A program made the translations under genes and the position numbers. 47,713 nucleotides of DNA from a virus. Its lineage: Duplodnaviria > Heunggongvirae > Uroviricota > Caudoviricetes. Below the pieces are notes generated by a model, which was given only the letters and a program-made list of their open reading frames with translations, searched no databases and was not told where the DNA came from. The DNA lies in IMG/VR virus record IMGVR_UViG_2541047774_000010; one strand, 5' to 3'. Of this stretch, positions 783-20,547 are shown one piece after another. Positions within the stretch are counted from its first letter, which is position 1. Each line of letters begins with the position of its first letter.

Positions 783-857
783 ATGACGTTGTCTCCTTAT
801 TTGCAAGAGGTGGCGAAGCGCCGCACTTTTGCCATTATTTCTCACCCCAATAATTAA
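783..857 (+). pseudogene. prfC: 5' fragment of peptide chain release factor 3 gene, cut by prophage integration
   Basis: ATG at 783 encodes [22 protein letters not shown], matching the RF3 N-terminus as recalled; the frame then reads NN-stop (855-857) where AT-rich phage DNA begins. Full prfC encodes about 529 aa. Confidence 0.85.
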
Positions 858-1077: not shown

Positions 1078-2313
1078 ATGGCGCTGTCTGATGCGTGGTT
1101 GCGTTCAGTCGTTGGAAAGGAACGTGATAAGGTTTTGGTTAAATCCGATCGTGATGGTCTGTCTGTCAGAGTATCACCGAAAGGTCGCGTAGTGTTCCAA
1201 TATCGTTATCAATGGGCAGGGAAAGGTGAGCGCCTTGATATCGGAACTTACCCGGCAACTGGATTAAAAGAGGCCAGAGAAGAAGTTATCCGTCTCCGTG
1301 GTGAACTCGAGTCAAACCGCAATCCACGATTAGTCAAGCAGGCTGAAAAACGAAAAGCTACTGAAGCCATGACGGTAGAGTCTGTGATCCGTGCCTGGTA
1401 TGAAGCATATTGTGTAAAAAATAAAAAAGGTTCTGAACAGATACTCCGCTCGTTTGAGCTGCACCTGTTCTCTAAAATCGGGAATATCCCTCACGATGCA
1501 GCTACATTGCATGATTGGTTAGAAGTCCTGGAGCCTCTTAGCACCAAGACTCCAGCAATAGTAGACCGATTGCTAATTAACGCAAAGCAGGCTCATGTCT
1601 GGGCGTATAAGAGAAAGCTCATTGAAACTCGCCCACTGTCGGATATCACGGGTAAAGATATGGATATCCGTAAAGGTCAGAAAAAACGGTTTCTGACACA
1701 TGATGAAATTAACATCCTTTATGCTGCGATCGATGGTTCTCGAATGGTTCCTAAATACCGAGCCTTCATTAAACTATTGCTGCATTTTGGTTGCCGTAGT
1801 TCAGAGCTAATTACTGCTAGGGTGGATGATTTTGATTTCATAAATAAGGTATGGACTGTACCACCAGAACGACATAAGACTGGGGACATAACAGGCGAAC
1901 CGCTAAAGCGGCCCATTATTGAACCGGTTGAAGAGCTTATAAAATACGTTATCTCTATGAACAACGGTTCCGATATGCTTTTTACTAAGGAAGGAAGCAG
2001 GGAGCCAGTTGGTCGGACATCATTGCAGTCGCTGCCTTACAATTTAATGCAGTTCGCATGGCGACGTTTGGGGTATCAATTTCCTCATTGGTCTCTTCAT
2101 GATTTGAGACGAACAGCACGAACAAACTTTTCTGATCTTACTGCTCCTCATATTGCTGAAATAATGCTTGGTCATAAACTGCCAGGTGTATGGCAAGTTT
2201 ATGATAAGAGCGATTATCTAGAAGAACAGCGTAAAGCTTACTGGGCATGGTGGGAGAGGGTTGAATCGATCGTTACTTGTACTGACTTAATCTCCAACGG
2301 ACAGTTTGCGTAG
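1078..2313 (+). CDS. int: Phage tyrosine integrase (P4/CP4-57 type, N-terminal arm-binding domain)
   Basis: 411-aa ORF; N-terminal LSVRVSPKGRVVFQYRYQWAGKGERLDIGTYP is typical of the DUF4102 arm-binding domain; C-terminal HDLRRTARTNF catalytic region; position immediately inside the attL junction. Confidence 0.93.
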   Translation: MALSDAWLRSVVGKERDKVLVKSDRDGLSVRVSPKGRVVFQYRYQWAGKGERLDIGTYPATGLKEAREEVIRLRGELESNRNPRLVKQAEKRKATEAMTVESVIRAWYEAYCVKNKKGSEQILRSFELHLFSKIGNIPHDAATLHDWLEVLEPLSTKTPAIVDRLLINAKQAHVWAYKRKLIETRPLSDITGKDMDIRKGQKKRFLTHDEINILYAAIDGSRMVPKYRAFIKLLLHFGCRSSELITARVDDFDFINKVWTVPPERHKTGDITGEPLKRPIIEPVEELIKYVISMNNGSDMLFTKEGSREPVGRTSLQSLPYNLMQFAWRRLGYQFPHWSLHDLRRTARTNFSDLTAPHIAEIMLGHKLPGVWQVYDKSDYLEEQRKAYWAWWERVESIVTCTDLISNGQFA

Positions 2314-2471: not shown

Positions 2472-3605
2472 ATGAATTATGAAAAATATCATAGCACAAA
2501 CAGAAGCAAGGGTTTGCGAACCTTCTGCTACTTAATTTATTATGTGCAGGTGATTTTTAATGTGATGAAGTGTTTTATGACTCGCGGAAACTTTGATTTT
2601 ATAAACTCTAACGTGGTTTTCTCAGAAGCCGATAAGTCATTGTGGATTGATCTCATTAACACCGATTGTATTTGGTATGATATGATAATTAATCCTCCTG
2701 ATGATATAAGAACAAATAAGATAATAAAGAACTATCTCAGAATTATGGAAAAATATACGAGGGAAAGCTGTGAAAAGAGATTTATTTATTTCTTAGGTTC
2801 AAGAAAAAAAGTGAGGTTTTCAACCAAGAAACAGCCTAGGTATAACCCATTCACAAAAAATATAGTATTCACTCTGTTGATTGGCAAAGAAGAGCGAAAG
2901 CTTCGGATAAAATATTCCTTTTGCACGTTTACGCAGAATGGGGTAGTGAAGGTAACTCCAAATGTTAGAGTAACTGAGAAGTTTCTCTACATTGAATATG
3001 AAAATGGCAATTTATGTGTGATGTCAGTTCATGATTTCGTAAACGGACATTATATTGATTTAGGAATTCATACAGAAGTGCATTACGTAGGATATACACG
3101 TCATCCGCATCGGCGCCCTGTTGATTTTATTCACCGTGGCTTATCAAAGATGCTGTATAGCGTTTCAAATGACGATAATGATTTTTTTGTTTGTTTTAGT
3201 ATATTTAATCCAAGGATTATATCTCTGAATAATAAATGTAATGTGGTCTTTAATATTTCAAATTCTCTACTGGATGAAATTGATGTTGATAATGAGGGGA
3301 GAATTATTGAAAACTGCTTAATACGTTACTTTGATCCTAAGCTTCAAGATGATGACAAGGAAAGTAAAAGGTCAGATTTAAATAAAATGTTTATGGACCT
3401 GGTGGAAAATAAAAAAATTAAAAAAATATACGTTAATTTTCAATATGAAAGGAATAATGAGTATTTCTGCTTTTACTCTAAAGTTGTTCCGCCGAAATTT
3501 CATCATTTCTTTGTGTTGGATTTTTCTGATGGCAAGATAAATATTGATAGAGACCAGGATATGATGACTCAGATGGCATTGTGCATGGGGTATTATAATT
3601 ATTAA
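2472..3605 (+). CDS. Hypothetical protein, AT-rich cargo gene of unknown function (start may be internal, near 2562-2577)
   Basis: 377-aa ORF in visibly AT-rich DNA (not quantified) unlike flanking phage genes; Lys/Asn/Ile/Tyr/Phe-rich; no family recognised; possible N-terminal hydrophobic stretch CYLIYYVQVIFNV; AGGGA 10 nt upstream of ATG 2472. Confidence 0.6.
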   Translation: MNYEKYHSTNRSKGLRTFCYLIYYVQVIFNVMKCFMTRGNFDFINSNVVFSEADKSLWIDLINTDCIWYDMIINPPDDIRTNKIIKNYLRIMEKYTRESCEKRFIYFLGSRKKVRFSTKKQPRYNPFTKNIVFTLLIGKEERKLRIKYSFCTFTQNGVVKVTPNVRVTEKFLYIEYENGNLCVMSVHDFVNGHYIDLGIHTEVHYVGYTRHPHRRPVDFIHRGLSKMLYSVSNDDNDFFVCFSIFNPRIISLNNKCNVVFNISNSLLDEIDVDNEGRIIENCLIRYFDPKLQDDDKESKRSDLNKMFMDLVENKKIKKIYVNFQYERNNEYFCFYSKVVPPKFHHFFVLDFSDGKINIDRDQDMMTQMALCMGYYNY

Positions 3606-3814
3606 TATTTCGCCTGATGCCAACTCAAAATCTTTTTTGTCGCATCCATTGTGGATTAATATTCAGAGGTAAGGGGTATCTGCGGAATTTATATTTTGCA
3701 GGATGAGCATACAATACATGATATAACATCTGTTTTTGGCACAGAGCATATAGTCAGATTATGTTTAGTTCTGTGCCATAGATGGATATTATCTCACCTC
3801 TTGGCTAACTCTCA

Positions 3815-4009
3815 TTACTCAATAACTCCAGCAAATCTGTATATTTTGCGTGATGCCCATTTATTTGGGCAGGATTTAATATCAGGATCTGGAAAATCTG
3901 GCCTGTATTTCTGGCCTGTCCTCCTGTTTACGCTGTTCCAGCGAAGCACCGTCGATATTGAAACGCCACAGAATTCGGCGACTTGTTTTGTTGTCATTAA
4001 GTTGCTCAT
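3815..4009 (-). CDS. AlpA/excisionase-family HTH DNA-binding protein (putative Xis or regulator)
   Basis: 64-aa ORF with strong RBS (GGAGGGG); TKQVAEFCGVSISTVLRW helix-turn-helix followed by YRPDFPDPDIK...KIYRF, resembling the AlpA/Xis pattern. Confidence 0.5.
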   Translation of the reverse strand: MSNLMTTKQVAEFCGVSISTVLRWNSVNRRTGQKYRPDFPDPDIKSCPNKWASRKIYRFAGVIE

Positions 4010-4043
4010 TGCTACCCCTCCAGCGGTTGTTCAGTTGAAAGAC

Positions 4044-4580
4044 TCATGCGCATGTGCGTAACTCCGATAACTCGTTAAAGCGTTCCATAAACATCCCGTA
4101 GGCATGGCCTGGCGACAGTGGAATAACTTTGAACATCTCTGTGGCAGAGATGCCTTCCAGTACTGGCCAGAAAGAGCCATCATCAAGCCCGAGATCGCGG
4201 CGTTCGGTTGCCAGCATGATGAGATCGGCATATTTCACGGGTGTACTCATAACCGGGGGTAACCCGTATTTCTCACGGATTACTGTGTCTATTTTTTCTT
4301 CCATCCGTTTATAGTCAGGAAGAAAGCGTTTCAGTGGTGCGGGGATGTCCTGGCAATACGCTTCTGTTGCATCATGCATTAACGCTTCAAAAGCAAATTC
4401 CTGCGGTACCAGCTGGCTGCAAAGCACCGCATGTTGGGCGACGCTGTAGAAGTGTGAAAGATGACCGGCAAAGCGACAGATATTTGAAAGGGAAACCGCG
4501 ATATCGTTAATATCGATGTCGTCTTTATTTATCCTGTCATAATAAAAATGCTTCCCGGAAAAAGTTTTAATAAATGACAT
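4044..4580 (-). CDS. yfdR: HD-domain phosphohydrolase, YfdR-like
   Basis: 178 aa from MSFIKTF with RBS GGAGAA; H...HD motif (SVAQHA...ALMHDATEAY); length and sequence resemble CPS-53 YfdR as recalled. Confidence 0.75.
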   Translation of the reverse strand: MSFIKTFSGKHFYYDRINKDDIDINDIAVSLSNICRFAGHLSHFYSVAQHAVLCSQLVPQEFAFEALMHDATEAYCQDIPAPLKRFLPDYKRMEEKIDTVIREKYGLPPVMSTPVKYADLIMLATERRDLGLDDGSFWPVLEGISATEMFKVIPLSPGHAYGMFMERFNELSELRTCA

Positions 4581-4707
4581 TTTGTTCTCCACGTATATGC
4601 GTTGCACCGTGCTGAATTCTGGTAAAAGGAAGCCCTCACCATCTGGCGATTATTGGGTAAATTATGTTGACATAAATGCCCCCGCAGGGGCATTTGCAGT
4701 AATGAAA

Positions 4708-5532
4708 TCAGGCGGTGAAAGTACCAATAAAGGTTTCTACTTTGCTGTCTTTGAATTTCTCAACAAGCAGATCACGAAATTCGTTAGCCATTTCTTCCTG
4801 CACCGCTTCCAGCTGAATAATGCGCAGAACCAGTACAGGACGATCGCCAGTGATAATGCTGAGGCGTAATTTAAACGGACGTTCTTTCAGACCTTCAAAC
4901 GGAACGCATTTAAATTCAAATGCCACTGGCATAATGTCTTTGGTCTTCGCTTCGACAGACTCCATCAGGGAGCGTTTGCCGCTGAAGTCATTATCTTCAA
5001 AATCAGCGGTCTGGTTCGCTTCAATTGTGATTTTACGGATCGCCGCAGCCGCTTTGGTTGCCTGAATGGCGTCACCATTAGCATCAAAGCCCACAAGGTA
5101 GTCGGCCCAGTCTTCAATCCATTCTGCCAGTGACTTCTGGGAGTTACGCTCGCCGTTAACAGACAACAGGGCAGAGAACGGTGCTGTCTTTTTCAGTTTG
5201 AGAGTGGCGGTGTTATCTGCGTGACCTGGTTCATCAATAGTACCCAGGTTAAGCACACTGACTGCTCGCATATTATCGGCATCGATAAAGCAGCGGGTGC
5301 CTTCATCTGCAAGATCTTTAGAATAACGGGTAAAGTCATCGATGCTGGCAGTGGAAAGCGCACCACGGAAACGGAAGCGATTTAAATTAAATTTTTCCAG
5401 ATCATGAATGCGGAAATTCTCAGGCAATGCCACAGCATCGGCACCAATCTTACTGATAATTTCATTAACACCCTGAGCAGAAATAAGGGCATGGATTTGA
5501 TTAATTGCGGTTGCGTCTAAGTTCTGAGACAT
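4708..5532 (-). CDS. yfdQ: DUF2303-family protein, YfdQ-like
   Basis: 274-aa ORF; length and sequence resemble CPS-53 YfdQ as recalled; same gene order as yfdP-yfdQ-yfdR. Confidence 0.75.
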
Positions 5533-5597
5533 AATAAGTCCTCACTATATAAAGATATTCAGTGATGAGATAAATAATCGGTTAATTAAGAACGATA

Positions 5598-5960
5598 TTA
5601 ATGACCTGCTGCGCGGAGTTTTCCGTCAGGTTCACCGGCAAGAGTCAGTAATTGTCCCTGGTCTTCCTGCAGAATAGTCAGGCGACCACCGCGATTGACA
5701 TACATCGGCGTTTCGGTGGTGTCTTCTTCGGAAATTTTCCCGCGGTTAGTCGGGCGAACATATGAGAGTTTGTGTTTGATTTTCACACGGTTCTCATCAA
5801 ATGGTTCGATTTCCAGGTTGAGTGAGACCTTACCTTTGGTTTTCGTGTTCATCACACCTGAAGCGACTTCACTGAGAACTGCGCCGATTTTGGTTTCAAA
5901 TACGCCGCCGTCCAGCTCCCCGATAAATGCCTGCACATCAGTACTGCGTTCGCTAGCCAT
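5598..5960 (-). CDS. yfdP: YfdP-like hypothetical protein
   Basis: 120 aa from MASERST with AGGAG 8 nt upstream; the track ORF extends further 5' from a TTG; position and size as for CPS-53 yfdP. Confidence 0.65.
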   Translation of the reverse strand: MASERSTDVQAFIGELDGGVFETKIGAVLSEVASGVMNTKTKGKVSLNLEIEPFDENRVKIKHKLSYVRPTNRGKISEEDTTETPMYVNRGGRLTILQEDQGQLLTLAGEPDGKLRAAGH

Positions 5961-6096
5961 TTTGCTGCTCCTCATCATATCGACCCTGCAAGGTCGGTTG
6001 GTTTCTCCACAAAACAGAGAAGAACACCTGCGGTGGCAGCCGCCCGGATGGATTGGGTTATGAGCCCGTCGTCCGGTGATGCTCTTCTCTGTTTTG

Positions 6097-6175
6097 TAAA
6101 AAGAGCGGTACCAGCCGGAAGCAAGTGTACAAACTGGTACCGCCAAAGCAGTGGCTGTTGTGGTGACCGGTGCTG
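6097..6175 (-). ncRNA. dicF: Candidate DicF-like sRNA ending in an intrinsic terminator
   Basis: Minus-strand stem GCGGTACCAG / CTGGTACCGC (plus 6133-6142 and 6106-6115) followed by a U-run; the segment TTTGGCGGTACCAGTTTGTAC matches the DicF core as I recall it (TTTGGCGGTATCAGTTTTAC) at about 18 of 20 positions. Recall-based, not verified. Confidence 0.35.
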
Positions 6176-6584
6176 ATCTCCGGCTTGCGGTTATTTCAGA
6201 CTCTCACGGGTGTTTAATTGCCCCGCCGAACAGCTCTTTTCCGCAATAGCTGCAATGTCTTTCGCGCATCAGCCTGCGCATTCACCACAACGCTGAGAGC
6301 ACTTAGCCAGTTACGGCACCACACTTTGTCGCGGTTCCATAAATGCCCTCATCGTTGCACCCTGGTCTCTTCCCAGGTGTCAAACCGAACCGCCACGCTG
6401 GTTAGGCGTCTTATCAGCATCATCATTGACTTGCACATTCCGGCTACCTGGTTTGTTTGCCCGAGCAAGGAGTGGATTGTCCCCTTTAACGTCCCCAGAC
6501 CGCTAACGACGCATGTGCCATACGCCGTGTTACAACCAAATTTTGTTAGTACCTTGTTTGTTGGTCTGGAAAGAAAGATAAAAT

Positions 6585-6630
6585 GAAGTTGCGCATTATG
6601 CAAGTGTTTTTGTTGCGAGATATGCAATTT
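6585..6630. promoter_or_regulatory. OL-like operator repeats and putative leftward early promoter
   Basis: Two 15-bp sites of form TTGCG-N5-TGCAA (TTGCGCATTATGCAA at 6589-6603, TTGCGAGATATGCAA at 6613-6627), similar to the sites between cI and cro; located just beyond the cI terminator. Confidence 0.4.
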
Positions 6631-6682: not shown

Positions 6683-7375
6683 TTAATTGTGTCGCTTAAG
6701 GGTTTGTGACTGGCTGATTAAGACCTTTCCAAAGACCATAAACCGGTGTTCATTTTCGCTGGTAATTCCCCATTCACGGTAAATCTGGTTATCAGAAATC
6801 ACCAGTAGTTTGTCAGGTATCATTTGCAGTCGTTTGACATAAATTTTATCATCAAAACCAAATACATAGATACCATCTCCATCAAACTGATTGATACTGA
6901 CATCAACGAAGATGAGATCTCCTGGCTCAATGGTTGGACACATACTGTCCCCACGAACGTTGATTACTTTAATGTGATTTGCTGGCCGTCCGCCAAACAT
7001 CGATACAGCATTATCAGTTCTGTATTCAATGGCATGAATCACATCAATGACATCACCGCCCTGGATAAGGCCATTTCCCGCACTGGCACTGATATCCAGC
7101 ATTTCAATACGGAATACATCCTTCACCTGCGCAACATCCTCACTAATACTGTTTTTACATACAGTATTACTTTTGAAGTCTGAGGTAAAGAGATCAGCAA
7201 TATCAACACCTAAGCTCCTGGCAATATTACTCAGGGCTTGTTCAGTGAATTGTTTCTGCTTACCTGTTTCCAGGCGCGAGATATTTGCCGCATCCACTCC
7301 TATTGCTTCAGCGAGATCGGCGATTTTCATGTTCTTCGCTTGGCGAAGTTGTCTGACTCGATTTCCTATGTTCAT
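6683..7375 (-). CDS. cI: CI-like prophage repressor (XRE HTH plus S24 LexA-type peptidase domain)
   Basis: 230 aa; N-terminal HTH (VRQLRQAKNMKIADLAEAIGVDAANISRLETG); Ala-Gly cleavage site (SASAG); C-terminal GDSMCPTIEPGDLIFVD with the Lys of the catalytic dyad; divergent from cro. Confidence 0.93.
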   Translation of the reverse strand: MNIGNRVRQLRQAKNMKIADLAEAIGVDAANISRLETGKQKQFTEQALSNIARSLGVDIADLFTSDFKSNTVCKNSISEDVAQVKDVFRIEMLDISASAGNGLIQGGDVIDVIHAIEYRTDNAVSMFGGRPANHIKVINVRGDSMCPTIEPGDLIFVDVSINQFDGDGIYVFGFDDKIYVKRLQMIPDKLLVISDNQIYREWGITSENEHRFMVFGKVLISQSQTLKRHN

Positions 7376-7733: not shown

Positions 7734-8277
7734 GCATCACTGGAAAGTGGAAAAACAGCCTGAGTGGTACGTGAAAGCTGTCAGAAAAACTATCGCGGCG
7801 TTGCCGGGGGGTTACGCTGAAGCTGCTGAGTGGCTGGATGTAACAGAGAACGCTTTATTCAACCGCCTTCGTGCAGATGGCGATCAGATTTTCCCGCTGG
7901 GATGGGCAATGATTTTACAGCGCGCTGCTGGCACTCACTACATTGCGGATGCTGTCGCACAGTCTGCTGGTGGGGTGTTTGTATCGCTTCCTGAAATTGA
8001 GGAAGTAGAGAACGCCGATATAAACCAGCGCCTGCTGGAAGTCATCGAACAAATCGGGAGTTACTCAAAGCAGATTCGTTCGGCAATCGAAGATGGGGTA
8101 GTGGAGCCACACGAGCAGACAGCAATTAATGATGAGTTGTATCTGTCGATTTCGAAGCTCCAGGAGCATGCGGCACTGGTCTACAAAATTTTCTGCGCTC
8201 CAGAAAAGAGTGACGCCCGCGAGTGTGCAGCTCCGGGCGTCGTGGCGTTTTGTGTCTGTGGAGAAACTAACGCATGA
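7726..8277 (+). CDS. Early regulatory protein in the CII position (YdaT/CII-like); GTG start
   Basis: 183-aa ORF beginning at a GTG with AGGAG 8 nt upstream, overlapping the cro stop; the call rests mainly on position. Confidence 0.45.
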   Translation: MGKHHWKVEKQPEWYVKAVRKTIAALPGGYAEAAEWLDVTENALFNRLRADGDQIFPLGWAMILQRAAGTHYIADAVAQSAGGVFVSLPEIEEVENADINQRLLEVIEQIGSYSKQIRSAIEDGVVEPHEQTAINDELYLSISKLQEHAALVYKIFCAPEKSDARECAAPGVVAFCVCGETNA

Positions 8278-8602
8278 ACAGTTTAACGGCAAATAACCGT
8301 TTGTCGCAACAGCTGGTGGTCAGCGTCTCTGAACACCTGTTGTTACGGCATGAATGCAGATTACCAAATCACCAGGCTGTAAGTAACCACAGAGAACTTT
8401 ACCTGACTGTGGGGGGCGAGTTGTGCAGGAACTTAACCGCTGGTTTCGTGACGGAAGAGGGCTTTATGTTCATGTTATTCGTTGGGAACCAGAAACACAG
8501 CGCGTTATCTATCTTCGCAAAGACTACCCGCATGAGTGCTTTAGTCCTTTGTGGAAATTCAGGCGTGATTTTGTTGAGTGTGACGGACCACCAACACATT
8601 GA
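8274..8602 (+). pseudogene. Small early gene split by a G6 homopolymer (frame disrupted in this sequence)
   Basis: ATG 8274 with good RBS (GGAGA); frame 0 runs through G6 at 8411-8416 into non-coding-looking sequence; the protein-like continuation VQELNRWFRDGRGLYVHVIRWEPETQRVIYLRKDYPHECFSPLWKFRRDFVECDGPPTH (8423-8602) lies in the +1 frame. Confidence 0.4.
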
Positions 8603-8687
8603 TTCTGCCATTCCGGGACGTTACACTGTTCAGGCACCTTATAAAACGGGTGCCGGGCGTGGAAACCCGGAATTCACCAAAGCGCAC

Positions 8688-8711
8688 AACCGCGCTCTTG
8701 CGGTTTTTTTG
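8688..8711 (+). terminator. Intrinsic terminator (tR1-like position)
   Basis: AACCGC-GCTCTT-GCGGTT hairpin followed by T7; it lies inside the track's 8274..9425 ORF, arguing that region is not coding. Confidence 0.45.
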
Positions 8712-8879
8712 TGTCATGAGCAGCATTACGCCCAAATTATGGTGGGGCGTGCAGGGCCAACTTCGGTTGGGCCGGGTTCTTTGGTGACCGGTATTTCCAC
8801 CCCTGTACGTCTCACCACCAATAAGGTCGTGGAAAGCCTTGGTGGTGAGTTATTAAAAATCACCAAAGAGGCTGCCATC

Positions 8880-9425
8880 ATGGCTACGATCCCAACCCTC
8901 ACTCAACCTGAAATTGCCATCGTTGATGGTCAGGTTGTTACTTCATCCCTGGCTGTTGCCAACTTCTTCTCCAAACGTCATGACGATGTACTGAAAAAGA
9001 TCCGCACGCTTGAATGCTCAGCATCATTCACTGCCCGCAATTTTTCGGTGAGTGATTACACTGATTGCACAGGTCGCAAACTTCATTGCTACCAAATCAC
9101 ACGCGATGGTTTTGCGTTTCTTGCTATGGGTTTCACGGGTAAACGTGCTGCCCAGTTCAAAGAGGCATATATCAATGCCTTTAACCAGATGGAGAAACAG
9201 CTTTCAAAGCCCGCTGTACCGAGCGACGTTGCACATAACGCCAGCGTTCTCTGTTCCTACATTTCATCAATTCATCAGGTCTGGCTGCAGCAGCTTTATC
9301 CTATGTTGGCAAAAGCCGAATCTCCGCTGGCTGTTAGCTTATATGATTATATTAATGATGCTTCGGCGCTGGCCTGCCTCATAAATTTGTCGCTGAACCC
9401 TTCAGAGGTAAGGGGGCGCAAATGA
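8880..9425 (+). CDS. rha: Rha-family phage regulatory protein (antirepressor-like)
   Basis: 181 aa from MATIPTLTQPEIAIVDGQVVTSS with RBS AAGAGG; motif GFAFLAMGFTGKRAAQFKEAYINAFNQME is typical of Phage_pRha. Confidence 0.8.
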   Translation: MATIPTLTQPEIAIVDGQVVTSSLAVANFFSKRHDDVLKKIRTLECSASFTARNFSVSDYTDCTGRKLHCYQITRDGFAFLAMGFTGKRAAQFKEAYINAFNQMEKQLSKPAVPSDVAHNASVLCSYISSIHQVWLQQLYPMLAKAESPLAVSLYDYINDASALACLINLSLNPSEVRGRK

Positions 9426-9646
9426 TCCGGAATATTTTCAAACGTTTTACCAATCAGACTTTCCGTTGTCCTCGTCCGGGTCAGTGGTACACCACGCCTG
9501 CAGGGCATGTTCTACGTGTTAGCCTGGTTGACCGTGAATGTCAGAAGGTGGTTTGTGAACCGCTGGGCCGTAATTACCGCGTCAGTATGCCGCTTATAGC
9601 CTTTTGCTCCGGAAAAAACATGAAGCATCTCGGAGGTGCAGCATGA
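9422..9646 (+). CDS. Hypothetical protein
   Basis: 74-aa ORF translationally coupled to rha (ATGA overlap) with RBS AGGGGG; no family recognised. Confidence 0.4.
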   Translation: MIRNIFKRFTNQTFRCPRPGQWYTTPAGHVLRVSLVDRECQKVVCEPLGRNYRVSMPLIAFCSGKNMKHLGGAA

Positions 9647-10461
9647 GTATGGAGCTGATGGTTAAAGCGATGAAAATTCGAGTGGGTAATCCATTGCGAA
9701 AACTGGTTCTGATCAAGCTGGCTGATAATGCCAGCGATCAGGGTGAGTGCTGGCCCAGCTACCAGCATATTGCTGACCAGTGCGAGATTAGCAAACGTTC
9801 TGTGATGAATCATATTGCGGCCCTTTGTGATTCCGGGCTGGTAAAAAAAGTCACCCGGAAAAGTGAAAAAGGTAACTCAAGTAATATCTATCTCCTTCAT
9901 CTGGATGGTGCAGGAGATTCACTAGGGGGTAGTGCAAATAATTCACTATCTGGTGCAGCAAATTCACCAGGTAGTGCAGGAGTTGCACCAGGGGGTGGTG
10001 CAGGAGATTCACCCAGAACCAGTCACTCTTTTGAACCAGTCAAAGAACCAGTCAATGAACCAATAGCTGTTGGTGCATCTGCTGATGAGTCTGTGCGAGT
10101 TCGTTCAAACCGACCGGAATACTCTCCGGAGTTTGAGCAGGCATGGCTGGCATACCCCAAACGTGCTGGTGGCAATTCAAAATCTGCAGCCTTCAAAGCC
10201 TGGAAAGCCCGTTTGAATGAGGGGGTAAAACCCGAAACCATGCTGGAAGGTGTGAAACGCTACGCGGGCTGGGTATCTGCGATGGGTAACAGCGGCACAC
10301 AATTTGTGAAACAGGCTGTCACGTTCTTTGGTCCGGATCGTCATTTCGAAGAATCCTGGGAAGTTCCTGCGGTATCTGCAGCCAGACGCGAGGACCCGTA
10401 CTTCAAAGCCAGTTACGACAACGTGGACTACAGCCAGATCCCGGCAGGATTCAGGGGGTAA
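9643..10461 (+). CDS. O: Replication initiator, lambda O-like (N-terminal HTH, iteron-encoded linker, C-terminal domain)
   Basis: Start MSMELMV with RBS GGAGGTG; N-terminal HTH (LIKLADNASDQGECWPSYQHIADQCEISKRSVMNHIAAL); Gly/Ser/Ala linker encoded by the iterons; C-terminal EFEQAWLAYPKR...AFKAWK resembles the lambda O C-terminus. Confidence 0.7.
   Translation: MSMELMVKAMKIRVGNPLRKLVLIKLADNASDQGECWPSYQHIADQCEISKRSVMNHIAALCDSGLVKKVTRKSEKGNSSNIYLLHLDGAGDSLGGSANNSLSGAANSPGSAGVAPGGGAGDSPRTSHSFEPVKEPVNEPIAVGASADESVRVRSNRPEYSPEFEQAWLAYPKRAGGNSKSAAFKAWKARLNEGVKPETMLEGVKRYAGWVSAMGNSGTQFVKQAVTFFGPDRHFEESWEVPAVSAARREDPYFKASYDNVDYSQIPAGFRG
9907..10068 (+). repeat. Putative origin of replication: five ~20-bp iterons plus three 12-bp tandem repeats inside the O-like gene
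   Basis: Five direct repeats of consensus GGTGCAGGAGATTCAC starting near 9907, 9928, 9952, 9970 and 9994; then GAACCAGTCAAA, GAACCAGTCAAT, GAACCAATAGCT at 10033-10068. Confidence 0.55.
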
Positions 10462-10463
10462 TC

Positions 10464-10952
10464 ATGAGTCTTTTGAATGAAGTTCAGAAATTCATTGAAG
10501 CCCATCCGGGGTGTACTTCCGGAGACATTGCAGATGCTTTTGCAGGTTACTCACGGCAGCGCGTTCTGCAGTCAGCAAGCAAGTTACGTCAGAGTGGGCG
10601 TGTGGCTCACCGTTGTGAAGGAGATACACGCAGACATTTCCCGCGCCTGACTGAGAGAGCGCAGGAGCCGGAACCACAACCAGTTCGTGAAACCAGACCT
10701 GTGCGCAATTTCTATGTCGGCACTAACGATCCCCGGGTAATTTTGTGCCTGACCCGCCAGGCTGAAGAACTGGAGTCCAGGGGCTTATACCGTCGTGCTG
10801 CAACCGTGTGGATGGCGGCATTCCGTGAAAGCCACTCCCAGTCAGAACGAAACAATTTTCTGGCGCGCCGTGAGCGGTGCTTACGGAAAAGCAGCAAGCG
10901 CGCTGTATCGGGTGATGAGTGGTATCTGTCAGGGAATTACGTGTGGGCTTAA
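10464..10952 (+). CDS. Hypothetical protein with C-terminal PerC-like motif
   Basis: 162 aa; C-terminal AEELESRGLYRRAATVWMAAF...SERNNFLARRERC resembles the PerC/Pch regulator signature (GLYRRAA) as recalled. Confidence 0.45.
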   Translation: MSLLNEVQKFIEAHPGCTSGDIADAFAGYSRQRVLQSASKLRQSGRVAHRCEGDTRRHFPRLTERAQEPEPQPVRETRPVRNFYVGTNDPRVILCLTRQAEELESRGLYRRAATVWMAAFRESHSQSERNNFLARRERCLRKSSKRAVSGDEWYLSGNYVWA

Positions 10953-11278
10953 TGACGACGTTAACTCAATGCCAGCAGCAGGTGCTGGATATGCTGATTT
11001 CTTATCAGAAAGAACGTGGTTTCCCGCCAACCAATCAGGAGGTGGCAGCCATGCTGGGATACCGTTCGGTGAATGCAGCGGTGGAGCATCTTCGCGCACT
11101 GGAGAAAAAAGGCGTCATCACGATAAAGCGTGGCGTGGCCCGGGGTATCACGCTTCATACCACAGTGAAGGACGACGACAGCGAGGCAGCCGGGATTATC
11201 CGCGCACTGCTTGCCGGTGAGGAAAACGCCAGACTGCGTGCAGCCCACTGGTTACATGAGAGGGGCCTGAAAGTATGA
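10952..11278 (+). CDS. LexA DNA-binding-domain-like protein lacking a peptidase domain
   Basis: Start MTTLTQCQQQV (TAATG coupling to the upstream gene); LTQCQQQVLDMLISYQKERGFPPTNQEVAAMLGYRSVNAAVEHLRALEKKGVI resembles the LexA N-terminal winged helix; no S24 domain follows. Confidence 0.55.
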   Translation: MTTLTQCQQQVLDMLISYQKERGFPPTNQEVAAMLGYRSVNAAVEHLRALEKKGVITIKRGVARGITLHTTVKDDDSEAAGIIRALLAGEENARLRAAHWLHERGLKV

Positions 11279-11664
11279 AGCTGATCCTGCCTTTCCCGCC
11301 CAGCGTGAACACGTACTGGCGACACCCCAACAAAGGGGCGTTTGCTGGTAAGAGCCTGATAAGCGCGGCGGGGCGCAAATTCCAGAGCGCGGCGTGTGCA
11401 GCAATATTTGAGCAGTTACGTCGTCTGCCAAAACCAACGTCGGCACCTGCTTCAGTGGAGATCGTGTTGTTTCCTCCGGATAACCGGATCCGCGATCTGG
11501 ACAACTATAACAAGGCGCTGTTTGACGCCCTGACCCACGCGGGTGTGTGGGAAGACGACAGTCAGGTGAAAAGAATGCTGGTGGAGTGGGGACCGGTTAT
11601 CCCGGAAGGGAAGGTCGAGATCACTATCAGTAAGTACGAGAAAACGGCGGGTGCAGCCGCCTGA
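11275..11664 (+). CDS. rusA: Holliday junction resolvase RusA
   Basis: 129 aa; LPFPPSVNTYWRH...RDLDNYNKALFDALTHAGVWEDDSQV matches the RusA family. Confidence 0.88.
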   Translation: MKLILPFPPSVNTYWRHPNKGAFAGKSLISAAGRKFQSAACAAIFEQLRRLPKPTSAPASVEIVLFPPDNRIRDLDNYNKALFDALTHAGVWEDDSQVKRMLVEWGPVIPEGKVEITISKYEKTAGAAA

Positions 11665-11683
11665 TTAAGAGGAGAAACGAAGT

Positions 11684-12481
11684 ATGAATAATCTGATGGT
11701 TATTGATGGTATTGAAGTTCGTCGTGATGCTTATGGGCGTTACAGCCTGAACGATCTGCACAGGGCTGCTGGTTCTCTGGATAAGCATAAGCCCGCATTC
11801 TGGCTCCGCAATGAGCAAACTGAGCGTTTAATAAGCGAGTTGCAGATTTGCAACTCGGTCAATATAGAGCCAGTTAACGTTATTCGTGGCGGAAATAACC
11901 AGGGGACGTATGTCTGCAAAGAACTGGTGTATGCCTATGCAATGTGGATCAGCCCGTCATTCCATCTGAAGGTGATCCGTACTTTCGACATGGTAACCAG
12001 CGCACCGGAAAAATTATCCGGACAGGCTGCTGACAAGATGCAGGCTGGTGTGATTCTGCTGGACTTTATGCGCCGGGAATTAAACCTGTCTAACTCTTCA
12101 GTGCTTGGTGCCTGCCAGAAACTCCAGGAGGCTGTTGGCTTACCGAATCTGGCACCGCGCTATGCCATTGATGCTCCTGCTGATGCACACGATGGCTCAA
12201 GTCGCCCCACGCTGTCTCTGAGTGCACTGCTGAGGCAGTATGGTATCCGCCTGACGGCTAATCAGGCATATCACCAGATGGTGAAGCTGGGGATCGTTGA
12301 ACAACGCGAACGATACAGCCGTACCGCGATTAACAACATCAAAAAATTCTGGTCGCTGACGGCGAAAGGCTGCATGTTCGGCAAGAACATCACCAGTCCT
12401 GCAAATCCGCGCGAGACGCAGCCGCATTTCTTCGAATCCCGATTCCCTGAGCTGTTAAAGCTGCTCGATACCGTTCATTGA
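11684..12481 (+). CDS. KilA-N domain protein (antirepressor-like)
   Basis: 265 aa with strong RBS (AAGAGGAGAAA); N-terminal KilA-N signature (YSLNDLHRAAG...KPAFWLRNEQT...GTYVCKELVYAYAMWISPSFHLKVI). Confidence 0.8.
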   Translation: MNNLMVIDGIEVRRDAYGRYSLNDLHRAAGSLDKHKPAFWLRNEQTERLISELQICNSVNIEPVNVIRGGNNQGTYVCKELVYAYAMWISPSFHLKVIRTFDMVTSAPEKLSGQAADKMQAGVILLDFMRRELNLSNSSVLGACQKLQEAVGLPNLAPRYAIDAPADAHDGSSRPTLSLSALLRQYGIRLTANQAYHQMVKLGIVEQRERYSRTAINNIKKFWSLTAKGCMFGKNITSPANPRETQPHFFESRFPELLKLLDTVH

Positions 12482-12482
12482 G

Positions 12483-13430
12483 GTGACCGTGAGAGCACTA
12501 CTGACCCCTGAAATTGCCCCGCGTATGGGGATTGTATTGTTCAGGCCAGGTTCAGAGCTGATGCCCCTGTTTATGCAGGGGCGTGTCCTGCTGGAGCCTG
12601 AGCCGGAACGTTATTCATCTTTCGCCAGTGGTGCCGTTCCGGCGGCATCACAACCGCTGGCGGATGATCCTGCCGTTCGGGCCGTGTTCCGCAATGAGGC
12701 AGTGATCCGTCGTGCTGGTGGCGTGGAATGTCTTGAAAGCTGGTTACTTCGTGAAAAGGGCTGTCAGTGGCCTCATTCCGACTGGCACAGCGAGAACATG
12801 ACCACAATGCGGCACGCTCCGGGAGCAATTCGTCTGTGCTGGCACTGCGATAACCAGCTGCGTGACCAGTTCACGGAACGGCTGGAATCAATGGCAACGG
12901 ATAACTGTGCCCGCTGGGTGTTGTCTGTCGTGCGTCGGGATCTCGGTTTTGATGACAGTCACGTTGTGACAATGCCGGAACTGTGCTGGTGGCTGGTTCG
13001 TAATGATTTGGCGGATGCCTTACCGGAAAGTGCAGCCCGTAAGGCACTGAGATTACCGAAGCCTGTTGTGCCATCTGTCACCCGGGAAAGTGACCTTGTG
13101 CCTTCGGTTCCTGCCACCAGCATCATCCAGGATAAAGCGAAAAAGGTGCTGGCGCTGAAAGTGGATCCGGAGTCGCCGGAGTCTTTTATGTTACGCCCCA
13201 AACGTCGCCGCTGGGTTAATGAAAAGTACACGCGCTGGGTTAAGACGCAGCCGTGCGCATGTTGTGGAAAGCCAGCTGATGATCCCCACCACCTGATAGG
13301 CCACGGTCAGGGTGGAATGGGTACAAAAGCGCATGATCTCTTTGTGTTGCCTTTGTGCAGAAAGCATCACGACGAGCTGCATGCGGATACCGTGACATTT
13401 GAAGAGAAGTATGGCTCCCAACTGGAGTAA
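12483..13430 (+). CDS. ydfU: DUF968-family protein, YdfU-like, C-terminally truncated by IS4
   Basis: 315-aa ORF with Cys/His cluster (CACCGKPADDPHHL...CRKHHDELH); the stop TAA at 13428-13430 is supplied by the first bases of IS4; the original last ~20 codons sit after the IS (14854-14917). Confidence 0.75.
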   Translation: MTVRALLTPEIAPRMGIVLFRPGSELMPLFMQGRVLLEPEPERYSSFASGAVPAASQPLADDPAVRAVFRNEAVIRRAGGVECLESWLLREKGCQWPHSDWHSENMTTMRHAPGAIRLCWHCDNQLRDQFTERLESMATDNCARWVLSVVRRDLGFDDSHVVTMPELCWWLVRNDLADALPESAARKALRLPKPVVPSVTRESDLVPSVPATSIIQDKAKKVLALKVDPESPESFMLRPKRRRWVNEKYTRWVKTQPCACCGKPADDPHHLIGHGQGGMGTKAHDLFVLPLCRKHHDELHADTVTFEEKYGSQLE

Positions 13431-14853
13431 TGCCAGTCAGTTAAGCAACTGACTGGCTCTTTTTCGGGGCTGTGGGGTATTTCCAGGGCCTCTCCTTTAC
13501 CACTCTCGGGAAGGCCCTTTCCCTTCTTGTCGGTAATTTCACAAGTTGTCCCATACTTGCAAGATCGTGCATCAGCTCCGGTATACGTCCCGGTGAAGCG
13601 CCCTGCAATGTCATCAGCATTCTCATCACCATTCCGCATGATTCTGAGAAACTCAGTTGATTCGGCCAGTAACCTTTCAGATGTTCCGCCATTTTAATCA
13701 TCTGATATCTCACCAGATTATAAGCCAGTAAGACACCCCACAGCTCTTGCTCCACAAGCTCCGGCTTTTTACTTCTCAGCGTCAGCCTGCTCAGTTGCAT
13801 CGTCTGTTTTATCTCCCTGTATCCCAGTTCGATTTCCCAGCGATGACTGTACAGATCCGCCATTTCTCCTCCGGGGAAGCGCATGGCGTCCGTCATCGAC
13901 GTCAGCAGATGGCAGACTTTTCCTTTGCGCGTCACGGTCAGCAGGCGGGCTGTCACCTCATTTCCCAGTCCCGGCCACTTTTTTCGTGCCTGCGGGCTGG
14001 TTTTCAGCTTCACCAGATGATCGCCTTTACCCAGTTTTCTGATCTCTTCATATTGCGCTCCCTTTCTGAGAGGGATCATCCAGTGGCGGTGTTCTCCCGC
14101 CAGGCTCCAGGCATTTAACAGTCCCAGTGAGTAATAACCTTTGTCCATTAACGTCAGAGTGTTATCGCCGGTTTGTTCTATAAGTTGCTCAGCAAGCTCA
14201 TTTTCGCTGTTCTTCATCGTGCCGAAGGCTGCAGCCGTCAGCAGATGGCTGGTCAGTTCCATCTGGCAGACCATTTTGACCTGCGGGTAGAGCGCCGGGT
14301 TCCCGGCATGTGTCTGGCGGGGGAAGGCTGCATCGTTCTCTGGTGTATCCGGTGTGCGCCAGAACACACCATCGATGGCCAGCAGGGTCAGGCCGCACCA
14401 TTGCGGATGCGGCGTGGCGTTATGCCAGAGCTGCGCTGTTTTCGTGAACACGCGGCGGACAGCCTCACTTCCCAAGCGCTGGCGGGCCTGAATAACGGCA
14501 CTGGGGGCAACGAAGGGGCGATTGCCCGGCAGCATGATGTCCAGGCGATTCACAATCTGGTGAAGAGGTTCTTTACGCTCAAGCGCCATGCCAACAATAC
14601 ACCAGACCATCATTTCGAGGGGAAGACGGCGCTTGCGTAGCGTTACAGTACCTGATTCGGCAAGGCAACGAGAGATGAGTTCGGGGTCGAGGTAATCCCC
14701 CAGAGAAGTCAGTGGGTTACGCAGAGAATCGTAACGGGATACCAAATCAAGGGCCTGTCCAATGTGCATAAAAAAATCCGGAAACGAGTGAGCGTTTCCG
14801 GATTCTTACACAGCCACTGGATCGGTCAACTGATCCTTAACTGATCGGCATTA
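13428..14853 (-). mobile_element. IS4 insertion sequence, complete, with 13-bp target site duplication
   Basis: 1426 bp, the canonical IS4 length; terminal inverted repeats TAATGCCAGTCAGTTAAGC (left) and reverse complement of TAATGCCGATCAGTTAAGG (right); flanking direct repeats CTCCCAACTGGAG at 13415-13427 and 14854-14866. Confidence 0.92.
13441..14769 (-). CDS. insG: IS4 transposase
   Basis: 442-aa ORF matching the IS4 transposase in length and sequence as recalled. Confidence 0.93.
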
Positions 14854-14930
14854 CTCCCAACTGGAGCTGATATTTCGTTTTATCGATCGTGCGCTGGCAA
14901 TTGGCGTACTGGCGTAAGTGGAGAACGAGC

Positions 14931-15683
14931 ATGAACCTTGAAGCCTTACCAAAATATTACTCCCCAAAATCTCCAAAATTGAGTGATGCCGCACCGGCGA
15001 CAGGCTCAGGTGGTTTAACGATTACGGATGTGATGGCTGCGCAGGGGATGGTGCAGTCGAAAGCACCGCTTGGGTTTGCCTTATTCCTGGCAAAAGCTGG
15101 CGTTCAGGATCCTCAGTTTGCGATTGAAGGTCTGCTCAATTACGCGATGGCACTGGATAACCCGACATTGAACAAATTGAGTGAAGAAATCCGGTTACAG
15201 ATCATCCCTTACCTTGTGAGTTTTGCCTTTGCTGATTATTCCAGGTCTGCGGCAAGTAAGGCTCGCTGTGAGCCTTGTGCTGGTACTGGATTTCATAATG
15301 TATTGCGCGAAGTGGTGAAATACTCCAGAAGCGGGGAGTCTGTTATCAAGGAAGAGTGGGTGAAGGAACTATGTCAGCATTGTCATGGTAAGGGAGAAGT
15401 CAGCACAGCGTGCAGAGGGTGTAAGGGTAAAGGTATTGTCCTGGATGAAAAAAGGACCCGGCTTCATGGCGCGCCTGTTTATAAGATTTGTGGGCGTTGC
15501 AATGGAAACCGGTTTAGTCGTTTACCAACGACACTGGCGCGGCGTCATGTCCAGAAGCTGGTACCAGACCTGACTGATTATCAGTGGTACAAAGGATATG
15601 CAGATGTCATTGATAAACTGGTTACAAAGTGCTGGCAGGAAGAAGCATATGCTGAGGTGCAATTAAGAAAAGTGACGAGATAA
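14931..15683 (+). CDS. Late-gene antiterminator Q-like protein (zinc-binding)
   Basis: Start MNLEALPKYY with RBS GTGGAGAA; three CxxCxGxG-type motifs (CEPCAGTGF, CQHCHGKGEV, CRGCKGKG); sits between the nin-like genes and a strong promoter/terminator pair. Confidence 0.6.
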   Translation: MNLEALPKYYSPKSPKLSDAAPATGSGGLTITDVMAAQGMVQSKAPLGFALFLAKAGVQDPQFAIEGLLNYAMALDNPTLNKLSEEIRLQIIPYLVSFAFADYSRSAASKARCEPCAGTGFHNVLREVVKYSRSGESVIKEEWVKELCQHCHGKGEVSTACRGCKGKGIVLDEKRTRLHGAPVYKICGRCNGNRFSRLPTTLARRHVQKLVPDLTDYQWYKGYADVIDKLVTKCWQEEAYAEVQLRKVTR

Positions 15684-15714
15684 ATGATTTTCGCCGAAGA
15701 TGGCGACGTAATGC

Positions 15715-15743
15715 TTGCATTTTTCAAAAAATATGGATAAAAT
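15715..15743 (+). promoter_or_regulatory. Putative late promoter pR'
   Basis: TTGCAT (15715-15720), 17-nt spacer, TAAAAT (15738-15743), about 30 nt downstream of the Q stop. Confidence 0.5.
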
Positions 15744-15790
15744 TTTTTCAACGATGGGCTTTATATACCCGACGTTAAGAAAAAGTAGAA

Positions 15791-15820
15791 AACCCGCTGA
15801 TGAGCGGGTTTTTGTGCTTT
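15791..15820 (+). terminator. Putative tR' intrinsic terminator
   Basis: AACCCGCT-GATG-AGCGGGTT 8-bp stem followed by TTTTGTGCTTT, about 45 nt downstream of the putative pR' -10. Confidence 0.6.
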
Positions 15821-16098
15821 AAATAGGGTAATAGAGATGTTGAATCTCATTCCGGGATTCATGTTTGTTTACTTATTATTTATCGGGTGACTTTGCCTGA
15901 TGTTTAAAATGTTTTCTTCCAGTACTATGTCCCTAGATACAATGAGTCTGCATATTACATTATTAGCAGAGCTATTACGGTCAAAGTACAGCATAAGCTT
16001 TTAAAGCCAATCAACCAGTCATCAAGACAGACGGGGTTATTCATGAAAACTCTCCATGTTTGATTCGATGGGGCCTGAAATTAAAGCTTTAATATAGC

Positions 16099-16311
16099 TC
16101 ATGAAAGGTAAACATTGGCAGCTGAAGGGCCACGCAGACCATTTATCCGGCAAAATTCCACGCGTAATCCGGTGGTAATTTCTTCTGCATCGCGGAGATT
16201 GAGCGCTGAAACATGAAGCTGGACATCGATACGACCATCGGATGGGGTGATAAGACCCTTGCCGCTTTTGCCGTCAAAGGTTTTGACAATTCCTGTCATT
16301 TTACGGGACAA
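16099..16311 (-). CDS. cspF: Cold shock protein paralog, CspF/CspH-like
   Basis: 70 aa [27 protein letters not shown]...[19 protein letters not shown], matching CspF/CspH as recalled. Confidence 0.88.
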
Positions 16312-16611
16312 AAAAATTCCTTAATACTGATAACTGGGCGCACTATACACACGTTCCTGAAGAAAGCTATAGTTTTTTGATGGGGTTGAAGATGGCTGGA
16401 TGTCTAAAATAAACATTGCTTCATATGTTCAACTATGCGTTAATGATTGCGTCGGTTTGAAGAACAGACGATATACGAAGTAGTTTACTAAAGCAGTTCT
16501 CATTTCAGGTGTTATTCACTTATTCCTTCTTTGAGTCTCTCCAATTAAGTACGAAGTCGTTTCTGTTATACAAGCCATTTATGCCGAAAGGCTCAAGTTA
16601 AGGAATGTAGA

Positions 16612-16827
16612 ATGTCAAATAAAATGACTGGTTTAGTAAAATGGTTTAACGCTGATAAAGGTTTTGGCTTTATTTCTCCTGTTGATGGTAGTAAAGATGT
16701 GTTTGTGCATTTTTCTGCGATTCAGAATGATAATTTTCGAACCTTATTTGAAGGTCAAAAGGTTACCTTCTCTGTAGAGAGTGGTGCTAAAGGTCCTGCA
16801 GCAGCAAATGTCATAATTACTGATTAA
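16612..16827 (+). CDS. cspB: Cold shock protein CspB-like
   Basis: 71 aa [38 protein letters not shown], a CspA-family protein matching CspB as recalled. Confidence 0.88.
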
Positions 16828-17108
16828 AATTCATAGTTTGTCTGTATACGATAACGAAGAAGGCTGATGCCTGAGTGGAGATACAGACAGAGTGGTGAAT
16901 ATTGGATCTCTTTAATAAATAGTAAGGAGGTCCAATACATGAAACAATGGCCAGCATATTTGGCAATAACTTAATCAGGAAAAGTATGCTAACCATTGTG
17001 GTGAAGTGCAGGTTTGCTGCATGAATAGTTTTACAGCAGAAGCTAACTGCTGGCATAGCAAAACAAAGTGCGTAAGTGGATGACTCCCACAAAAAGTACC
17101 ACAATATT

Positions 17109-17134
17109 AAACCCGCTCAGGCGGGTTTTTTATT
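17109..17134. terminator. Intrinsic terminator, possibly bidirectional
   Basis: ACCCGC-TCAG-GCGGGT hairpin followed by TTTTTTATT on the plus strand; lies between cspB and the convergent zinc-ribbon gene. Confidence 0.6.
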
Positions 17135-17190
17135 ATCTGCTTTAAATATGTTATTAAAATATAAAAAATACTTGTTACGAATAAAATCAA

Positions 17191-17795: not shown

Positions 17796-17799
17796 TCCA

Positions 17800-18672: not shown

Positions 18673-19700
<1,028 letters not shown>

Positions 19701-20505: not shown

Positions 20506-20547
20506 TTAGTGTCTAGTCGATGGATACTCACATATTACGGTAACATT

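Follow-up and report, generated by a model that had tools for sequence, protein, structure and literature searches.

A CPS-53-type yfdP-yfdQ-yfdR cassette, a structured leader RNA and a probable excisionase gene in the early-left arm of a lambdoid prophage

The IMG/VR virus record IMGVR_UViG_2541047774_000010 is a stretch of DNA of 47,713 nucleotides, the whole of which is called the window here, in which three leftward genes resembling yfdP, yfdQ and yfdR of the CPS-53 (KplE1) prophage of Escherichia coli K-12 are followed by a small gene that faces the integrase. An earlier note, made from the letters alone, proposed that the three genes form a host-takeover module and that the small gene, which it called AlpA-like, could be the excisionase. 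A lambdoid prophage is inserted at the 5′-end of prfC, and the region is its early-left (pL) operon. Reading from pL, the operon consisted of a structured leader RNA, yfdP, yfdQ, yfdR and a gene of 64 codons, and ran towards a convergent P4-type integrase. According to the list of open reading frames (ORFs), the four genes shared the minus strand and were separated by short gaps:

5598..5960, minus strand: yfdP, 120 residues from the ATG common to its homologues (K-12 identity, PHROG 204)
4708..5532, minus strand: yfdQ, 274 residues, DUF2303 (K-12 identity, PF10065)
4044..4580, minus strand: yfdR, 178 residues, HD-domain 5′-deoxynucleotidase family (K-12 identity, PF12917, PHROG 318)
3815..4009, minus strand: 64-residue helix-turn-helix gene, last in the operon (PHROG 1553)

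Identity and distribution of the cassette

A BLASTP alignment of the three proteins with those of the K-12-derived MFDpir revealed that YfdP was identical at 119 of 120 positions (99%; 3e-90), YfdQ at 273 of 274 (99.6%) and YfdR at 169 of 178 (95%, with nine substitutions; 7e-133). The nucleotide match to K-12 spanned window positions 4044–5979 at 96.8% identity, far beyond chance. With the same gene order and the same lengths of 120, 274 and 178 residues, the assignment to the CPS-53 trio made in the earlier note was confirmed, and that the parts are those it named can be regarded as close to certain.

YfdP matched PHROG 204 (1.2e-49) and all of its homologues carried a precomputed PF27127 match. 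YfdQ passed the DUF2303 model PF10065 with 311.4 bits against a cut-off of 26.6, over profile positions 2–269 of 269. YfdR passed the YfbR-like model PF12917 marginally (26.2 bits, cut-off 25.9) and matched PHROG 318, ‘deoxyribonucleoside 5′ monophosphate phosphatase’, at 1.7e-108. The HD motif that had been read in YfdR was intact, with H50, H69-D70 (codons 4376–4371) and D78 conserved, and this H...HD...D pattern aligned to the HD protein Atu1052 (PDB 2GZ4, E 2.4e-13) and weakly to YfbR. On the NCBIfam YfbR equivalog model YfdR scored 21 bits, far under the cut-off of 122 bits, and it is therefore not a YfbR orthologue.

The identity of the cassette was already known, and the cassette is real but ordinary. 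PGAP already assigns the names yfdP, yfdQ and yfdR and calls YfdR a 5′-deoxynucleotidase. Of 5426 complete E. coli genomes, 3137 contained a match to a 2.5-kb region used as query, and in 2073 the match extended over 80% or more of it; few accessory modules of E. coli lambdoid phages are more common than the cassette. It was also present in the active phages mEp460, cdtI, 2H10, SfV and Stx1a, Stx2a, Stx2c and Stx2k phages. The finding of a module that PGAP names and most E. coli genomes hold matters little as such. Over its left 5.9 kb the prophage shared 100% identity with PhiR63_1, an active phage. Beyond about 10.9 kb it was no longer collinear with PhiR63_1 or strain 06-00048, and the window prophage is a mosaic relative of PhiR63_1 and of the 06-00048 prophage, not a copy.

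CPS-53 and the window shared the order and strand of the trio and its place downstream of the immunity region, and differed in what followed. In K-12 the cluster continues with yfdS (DUF551), yfdT and the TorI excisionase, with IntS at argW, whereas in the window yfdR was followed by an unrelated 64-residue xis-like gene and a different integrase, at prfC. Neither the immunity region nor the leader survives in CPS-53 of K-12, and the match to it stopped at window position 5979. The trio sat between the repressor and pL on one side and xis and int on the other, in agreement with the slot that the earlier note had recognised as the one where lambda carries exo-bet-gam. The likeness to exo-bet-gam lay in this map position and in early expression from pL; the genes themselves had no sequence or fold relation to the trio.

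Function of the cassette

The sole functional study of the cassette (Noguchi and Katayama 2016, PMC4776307) reported that DnaA-dependent initiation at oriC is inhibited when the CPS-53 cluster is present in additional copies, and the earlier note was right about this interference on overexpression. Extra yfdQRT or yfdQRS inhibited initiation in wild-type, hda-185, dnaAcos and seqA cells, and YfdR bound domain I of DnaA via Phe46, competing with DiaA and DnaB. The minimal set comprised yfdQ and yfdR together with either yfdS or yfdT; suppression was not seen with a plasmid that carried only yfdQR, yfdP was dispensable, and gene deletion was without phenotype. A deoxyribonucleoside 5′-monophosphate (dNMP) phosphatase activity of low affinity was reported for K-12 YfdR. 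The authors suggested a role like that of lambda P in an ancestral phage, and conceded that an overexpression artefact was possible. In the analogy that they drew, lambda P is likewise a phage protein that binds DnaA and inhibits initiation at oriC. Lambda P differs in that it binds domain III and is a helicase loader, whereas YfdR binds domain I and is an HD phosphohydrolase with no loader activity known.

Both yfdQ and yfdR of the published inhibiting set were found in the window. No homologue of YfdS, YfdT or TorI was detected by tblastn anywhere in its 47.7 kb, the best match of K-12 YfdS or YfdT being a 12-residue fragment at E 0.068. Of the proposed host-takeover module, the report on DnaA and the position in the lambda slot stood; the function is not transferable as it had been stated, because yfdS or yfdT is required and both are absent from the window. 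The published study, although correctly cited, is thus not fully applicable to this phage. It is rather doubtful that the cassette would measurably inhibit initiation of host replication here.

The composition of the cassette was compared over 82 loci, which were collected with three distant YfdQ seeds (from Vibrio, Xanthomonas and Pseudomonas) from IMG/VR and annotated phages and dereplicated at 85% identity into 29 clusters, treated as lineages. The counts are indicative, as ORF calling was simple, the seed lineages were three and the lineages are not fully independent. At 81 of the 82 loci, covering 28 of the 29 lineages, the YfdP profile matched the ORF that immediately precedes yfdQ; the sole lineage without the pair had a truncated yfdQ. 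A YfdR-like gene lay downstream in only seven of the 29 and was variable inside lineages. YfdP and YfdQ therefore apparently form an obligate pair; this constant unit occurs in phages of Escherichia, Vibrio, Pseudomonas and Xanthomonas, and YfdR, like YfdS and YfdT, is an optional addition. This constancy, set against the variability of YfdR, YfdS and YfdT, changes which genes merit joint study.

These counts, together with the gene content of the phage, bear on the reading in which the trio shuts off DnaA-dependent initiation at the chromosome during lytic growth and so replaces the early-left functions of lambda. The replication module (window 9643–10461) consisted of a single O-like protein with HTH_36/DnaD_N domains and then a PerC-like gene, and no helicase loader or helicase was found in it. 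In a phage without a loader, interference at the DnaA-DnaB interface could be useful; the published inhibition by extra copies, the binding through Phe46 and the lambda-P-like ancestral role proposed also favour the shut-off reading. It is opposed by the failure of yfdQR alone to suppress and the lack of the required yfdS or yfdT; by the dispensability in the assay of yfdP, which is nevertheless the most tightly linked partner of yfdQ; by the lack of YfdR in most YfdPQ lineages; and by the artefact that the authors themselves allowed for. We regard such a shut-off as possible but unlikely.

RecT, a YqaJ-type exonuclease, Rad52, a DnaQ-type exonuclease or a single-stranded DNA-binding protein (SSB) was encoded within three ORFs of the pair in about 12 of 25 distant lineages. 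One arrangement, seen in Vibrio-type phages and on contig L090, was RecT, YqaJ-type exonuclease, YfdP, YfdQ and SSB; another was Rad52, YqaJ-type exonuclease, DnaQ-type exonuclease, YfdP and YfdQ. In ArgO145 the order was Gam, RecT, exonuclease, SSB, YfdP and YfdQ, and in Xanthomonas CP2 Erf and an exonuclease were near the pair. AlphaFold2 modelled YfdP (pLDDT 82) as a long helix against three long strands with a disordered tail, and YfdQ (pLDDT 91.5) as a two-lobed alpha/beta protein. The PDB entry 9O7M, ‘YfdQ Protein’, was found to be a 274-residue YfdQ homologue (E 8e-45) with 36 identical chains in one entry; its example chain is C, and chains A and B are therefore other molecules. A literature search found no paper on 9O7M. 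Taken together, the neighbourhoods and the large assembly hinted at by the 36-chain entry point to a role of YfdP-YfdQ in DNA transactions without defining that role, and the comparative result ties the pair to recombination and SSB neighbourhoods.

A rival reading is that YfdP-YfdQ is an unrecognised recombination or single-stranded DNA-handling function, such as an annealing protein, a mediator or an end-binding factor, that replaces Red or Erf in phages without a recombination (Rec) module. Its position between the RecT and YqaJ-exonuclease genes and the SSB gene in Vibrio-type phages and on contig L090, its adjacency to Gam-RecT-exonuclease-SSB in ArgO145, its nearness to Erf and an exonuclease in CP2, and the large oligomer that the 36 chains suggest would all fit. 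The pair co-occurs with complete Rec modules, which argues against a redundant function, and showed no fold similarity to Rad52, RecT, Erf, Gp2.5 or Rad51. Furthermore, the window contained 11 Chi sites (GCTGGTGG) where 1.58 +/- 1.13 were expected and none of 100 shuffles reached 11; the 11 lay within 7966–24549, ten of them on the plus strand, and none was in the early-left arm. The Chi enrichment suggests that the phage relies on host RecBCD and RecA, and a replacement of Red or Erf by YfdP-YfdQ is accordingly improbable.

The only genes between cI and int were yfdP, yfdQ, yfdR, the 64-codon gene and a cargo gene, and none of these matched a Rec module component (annealing protein, exonuclease, SSB or RecBCD inhibitor). 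By its sequence features the phage fits the ‘no Rec module, high Chi’ class of lambdoids that Zheng et al. (2025, PMC12315714) described for phage LLS. That study also found a yfbR/yfdQ/yfdP trio in LLS, noted the trio as common in early-left operons, and recorded the O-only arrangement without a loader as the same unexplained layout in LLS and 34 other lambdoids. The window phage resembled LLS, ST64B and SfV in having the trio in the early-left operon of a Rec-less, Chi-rich, O-only and N-less lambdoid; LLS differed in its ssrA site and its integrase, and the LLS proteins were 76–90% identical to those of ST64B, not to those of K-12 (PMC12315714). RecBCD-enhanced growth was demonstrated for LLS only. 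Lambda is without Chi sites and inhibits RecBCD, whereas the window phage is Chi-rich.

Early-left operons often hold anti-defence genes, and the cassette could be read as a counter-defence or nucleotide-pool module in which YfdR, in the way of the dmp-type 5′-deoxynucleotidase of phage T5, would hydrolyse dNMPs or a defence nucleotide and YfdPQ would neutralise a host immune factor. The PHROG 318 and PGAP names of YfdR point the same way, as do Tad2-like anti-Thoeris genes, which in two Vibrio-type lineages follow the pair at a distance of two to three genes, and the presence of Acb2 in the corresponding operon of a Plesiomonas prophage. YfdP, YfdQ and YfdR matched no PADLOC model and no known anti-defence family, and there is no experimental link; we give this reading very little credence.

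The last gene of the operon

The 64-codon gene began 34 nucleotides past the yfdR stop, with a GGAGG ribosome-binding site seven nucleotides upstream of its start, and was convergent with the integrase gene:

1078..2313, plus strand: P4-type tyrosine integrase, 411 residues (Pfam Arm-DNA-bind_3, Phage_int_M and Phage_integrase)

It was left unannotated by PGAP (RefSeq), and the record of PhiR63_1 (GenBank PV340573) calls instead an opposite-strand ORF of 121 residues with a TTG start (window 3696–4061, plus strand). Alignment with three orthologues revealed substitutions at the first, second and third codon positions of the 64-codon gene in the numbers 4, 3 and 24; 9, 6 and 34; and 1, 1 and 9, and the opposite-strand ORF was interrupted by stop codons in orthologues. 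The 64-codon gene is a real gene under purifying selection.

Its protein matched PHROG 1553, ‘excisionase’, at 1e-34, residues 1–64 aligning with profile positions 1–63 of 65. Homologues that were 68–97% identical were present in E. coli, Citrobacter, Salmonella and Plesiomonas, and in each of these four genera the homologue was always int-proximal, the last gene before the convergent integrase. The integrases had diverged alongside it: identities for the integrase and the 64-codon ORF were 81% and 80% in Salmonella, 77% and 68% in Plesiomonas, and 87–88% (integrase remnants only) and 84% in Citrobacter rodentium. The Plesiomonas operon had no yfdPQR and held Acb2, RdgC and an AlpA gene instead. 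Inheritance of the 64-codon gene was thus linked to int and independent of the cassette, as expected of a directionality factor. On these grounds the gene probably encodes the excisionase, or recombination directionality factor, of the adjacent integrase, and the guess of the earlier note in this respect gained support from the PHROG 1553 match and the conserved linkage with a co-diverging integrase.

The family name given with that guess was wrong, since PF05930 was not matched even at E<=10, and membership of the AlpA family was rejected. Homology to TorI was also rejected (E 0.57). Set beside TorI, AlpA, P4 Vis and Xis, the 64-residue family resembled them in being labelled excisionase by PHROG and differed in lacking PF05930 and in matching HTH_17 and TIGR01764 only below threshold; the gene was convergent with int, whereas lambda xis is co-directional with it. 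Matches to Xis_Gifsy_1 (Gifsy-1 Xis) and TIGR01764 were weak, and generic helix-turn-helix models (HTH_23, HTH_17, MerR and LacI) matched the first helix only, HTH_17 and MerR below threshold. No experimental report of the family stimulating attL x attR recombination or binding the arms of the attachment sites was found.

AlpA is an activator of intA, and the 64-residue protein could by comparison be mainly a transcriptional regulator such as an int activator, or a terminase-small-subunit-like or MerR-like DNA binder. The restriction of the generic helix-turn-helix matches to the first helix would agree with this, as would the orientation of int, which must be expressed independently. In the Plesiomonas prophage (locus L009) a true AlpA gene (PF05930) lay immediately upstream of the 64-codon homologue, so that there were two candidate factors, of which AlpA could be the true directionality factor there. 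The full-length PHROG 1553 match, the weak Gifsy-1 Xis and TIGR01764 matches, and the strict int-proximal place and co-divergence with the integrase over four genera, whatever else the operon held, speak for an excisionase and leave a mainly regulatory role unlikely.

A selected gene of an excisionase family is accordingly missing from the RefSeq and GenBank annotation of this prophage type, Stx1a and Stx2c phages at prfC included, and the omission matters for predicting the ability of prfC prophages to excise. The same prfC flank, integrase and xis-like gene were found in Stx1a- and Stx2c-converting phages (LC7278xx records). As a separate observation, the early-left operon of locus L009 carried an anti-CBASS gene with the Acb2/Tad1 hairpin, RdgC and the true AlpA (positions 2516–2842 and 5697–5981).

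The leader RNA and the surrounding prophage

The least ordinary thing in the region is the leader RNA, which lay outside the coordinates of the earlier note. The leader between CI and yfdP was 720 nucleotides long and gene-free, and no credible ORF was found between the putative pL and yfdP. The following features were placed in it, next to the repressor gene:

6683..7375, minus strand: CI-like repressor, helix-turn-helix plus S24 peptidase (Pfam Peptidase_S24, HTH_3)
6575..6627 region, minus strand: putative pL, TTGCAT at 6603–6598, a 17-nucleotide spacer and TATCTT at 6580–6575 (read by eye)
6334..6553, minus strand: conserved structured RNA element of about 200–220 nucleotides, at the 5′-end of the presumed pL transcript
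6004..6102, minus strand: long hairpin, an inverted repeat with 25-nucleotide arms, 44 nucleotides upstream of the yfdP start

The repressor gene, which was accompanied by a terminator-like hairpin (6662–6645), formed the right boundary of the early-left arm, and Cro and CII-like genes adjoined it to the right. Two imperfect palindromes of 15 bp, TTGCA-N5-CGCAA, at 6627–6613 and 6603–6589 were taken as the putative operator. The placement of pL and operator is one that we infer from these motifs; a consensus promoter scan did not detect pL. The hairpin at 6004–6102 had a minimum free energy of -51.2 kcal/mol and a z-score of -7.4, and none of 200 shuffles folded as well. It may gate the operon, acting as a signal for processing or termination.

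A covariance model built for the structured element scored 166 bits (E 7e-46) on the window, where the element was single-copy and none was detected after pR. For 40 dereplicated homologues RNAalifold gave 27 pairs in six helices, nine of the 27 with compensatory changes. In these pairs 98.8% of cells were paired, compared with 92.1% in shuffles (none of 500 reached the observed value), and the covariation score was 0.225; shuffles gave 0.105, and slid registers no more than 0.039. Rfam 15 left the element unmatched at the gathering score and also at E<=1 with permissive filters. Its invariant 19-mer, GGTAGCCGGAATGTGCAAG, was present in at least 120 IMG/VR contigs, and BLAST revealed the element in 79 phage records, nearly all of which leave it unannotated. 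The phages that carried it were yfdPQR-type lambdoids, P1/P7/D6-like phages, phiV10/TL-2011b-like phages and some P22-like phages. A literature search on the invariant motif found nothing. The leader therefore holds a widespread structured RNA without an Rfam family.

A same-strand tRNA gene was present within -500 to +700 nucleotides of the motif in nine of the 40 dereplicated copies. That the element is itself a tRNA or tRNA fragment was rejected, as ARAGORN and Rfam were negative and an annotated tRNA-Arg merely abutted the match. The element resembled put of HK022 in being a structured RNA with which the pL transcript of an N-less lambdoid begins, a likeness of arrangement, and a put-like mechanism has been suggested for LLS (Zheng et al., PMC12315714). 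It differed from put in its occurrence beside tRNA genes in P1-like, phiV10-like and P22-like phages and in being present once, with none detected after pR. A two-copy put-like arrangement was rejected, since the element was single-copy, and this argues against a put-like system with two sites. The element may act in cis on the pL transcript.

The proposed course of events is that induction would start transcription of the operon from pL. YfdP-YfdQ would have an accessory part in replication or recombination of the phage DNA. YfdR, as an HD-family 5′-dNMP phosphohydrolase, would trim dNMP pools, interfere with DnaA-dependent helicase loading, or both, the K-12 orthologue contacting domain I of DnaA at the site that DiaA and DnaB contact. 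The last gene would supply the directionality factor with which the integrase excises the prophage. For this explanation as a whole, mechanism included, we put the chances at about even. Several points weigh against it. To our knowledge no PHROG 1553 excisionase has been put to an experimental test, none of the solved excisionase structures matched the 64-residue protein by sequence, and in Plesiomonas directionality and regulation could be split with AlpA. No function has been demonstrated for YfdP or YfdQ, whose AlphaFold2 models had no informative fold neighbour in the PDB. The DnaA effect was obtained with multicopy plasmids, depends on yfdS or yfdT and has no counterpart in a deletion phenotype. 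Zheng et al. (2025, PMC12315714) thought it unlikely that the trio hides a recombination system, ArgO145 having both the trio and a full Rec module.

A more far-reaching version, for which the odds are poor, is that YfdP-YfdQ is an uncharacterised, obligately paired DNA-transaction factor of phage replication and recombination modules that, with YfdR, diverts DnaA, DnaB and DnaC to the phage origin, and that the novel leader RNA controls the operon. If this were true, YfdPQ and YfdR would supply the missing step in O-only, Rec-less, Chi-rich lambdoids, under the control of an undescribed leader RNA shared with P1-like, phiV10-like and P22-like phages.

To the left of the operon, the window contained the prophage junction and the genes next to it:

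15-692: yjjG, host gene at the start of the window
783..851, plus strand: 5′-end of prfC, cut short (PrfC residues 1–22, then a stop; translation and PGAP partial coding sequence)
2472..3605, plus strand: cargo gene, 377 residues, PHROG 7779 (unknown function); PGAP start at 2577

The truncated prfC at 783..851 is the left prophage junction, and the PhiR63_1 record and its alignment began at window position 846. The cargo gene was low in GC (34–39%) and had no Pfam and no PADLOC match. The slot between int and the xis-like gene was variable: sister prophages at the same prfC site held DUF4365 or AIPR (abortive-infection) genes there, and a Plesiomonas relative had a Fic gene in the place of the cargo gene. 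This slot looks like a defence or cargo hotspot.

To the right, Rfam detected isrK (8634–8710, plus strand) and C4 antisense RNA (8735–8822, plus strand) inside or upstream of an Ash/Rha antirepressor-type gene (8532–9425); together they are an RNA-controlled antirepressor unit like immI of P1 and P7, in the early-right operon. An IS4-family transposase (Nterm_IS4 and DDE_Tnp_1; 13441–14769, minus strand) lay inside an insertion of about 1.43 kb (approximately 13428–14853), between a DUF968 gene and the Q antiterminator, that was absent from PhiR63_1 and 06-00048 and may cripple late-gene expression of the prophage. Two cspA-thermoregulator 5′ untranslated regions (16451–16890 and 19917–20322) were found by Rfam in the low-GC lysis and cargo region, and the small RNA IS009 (46180–46378) near the right end.

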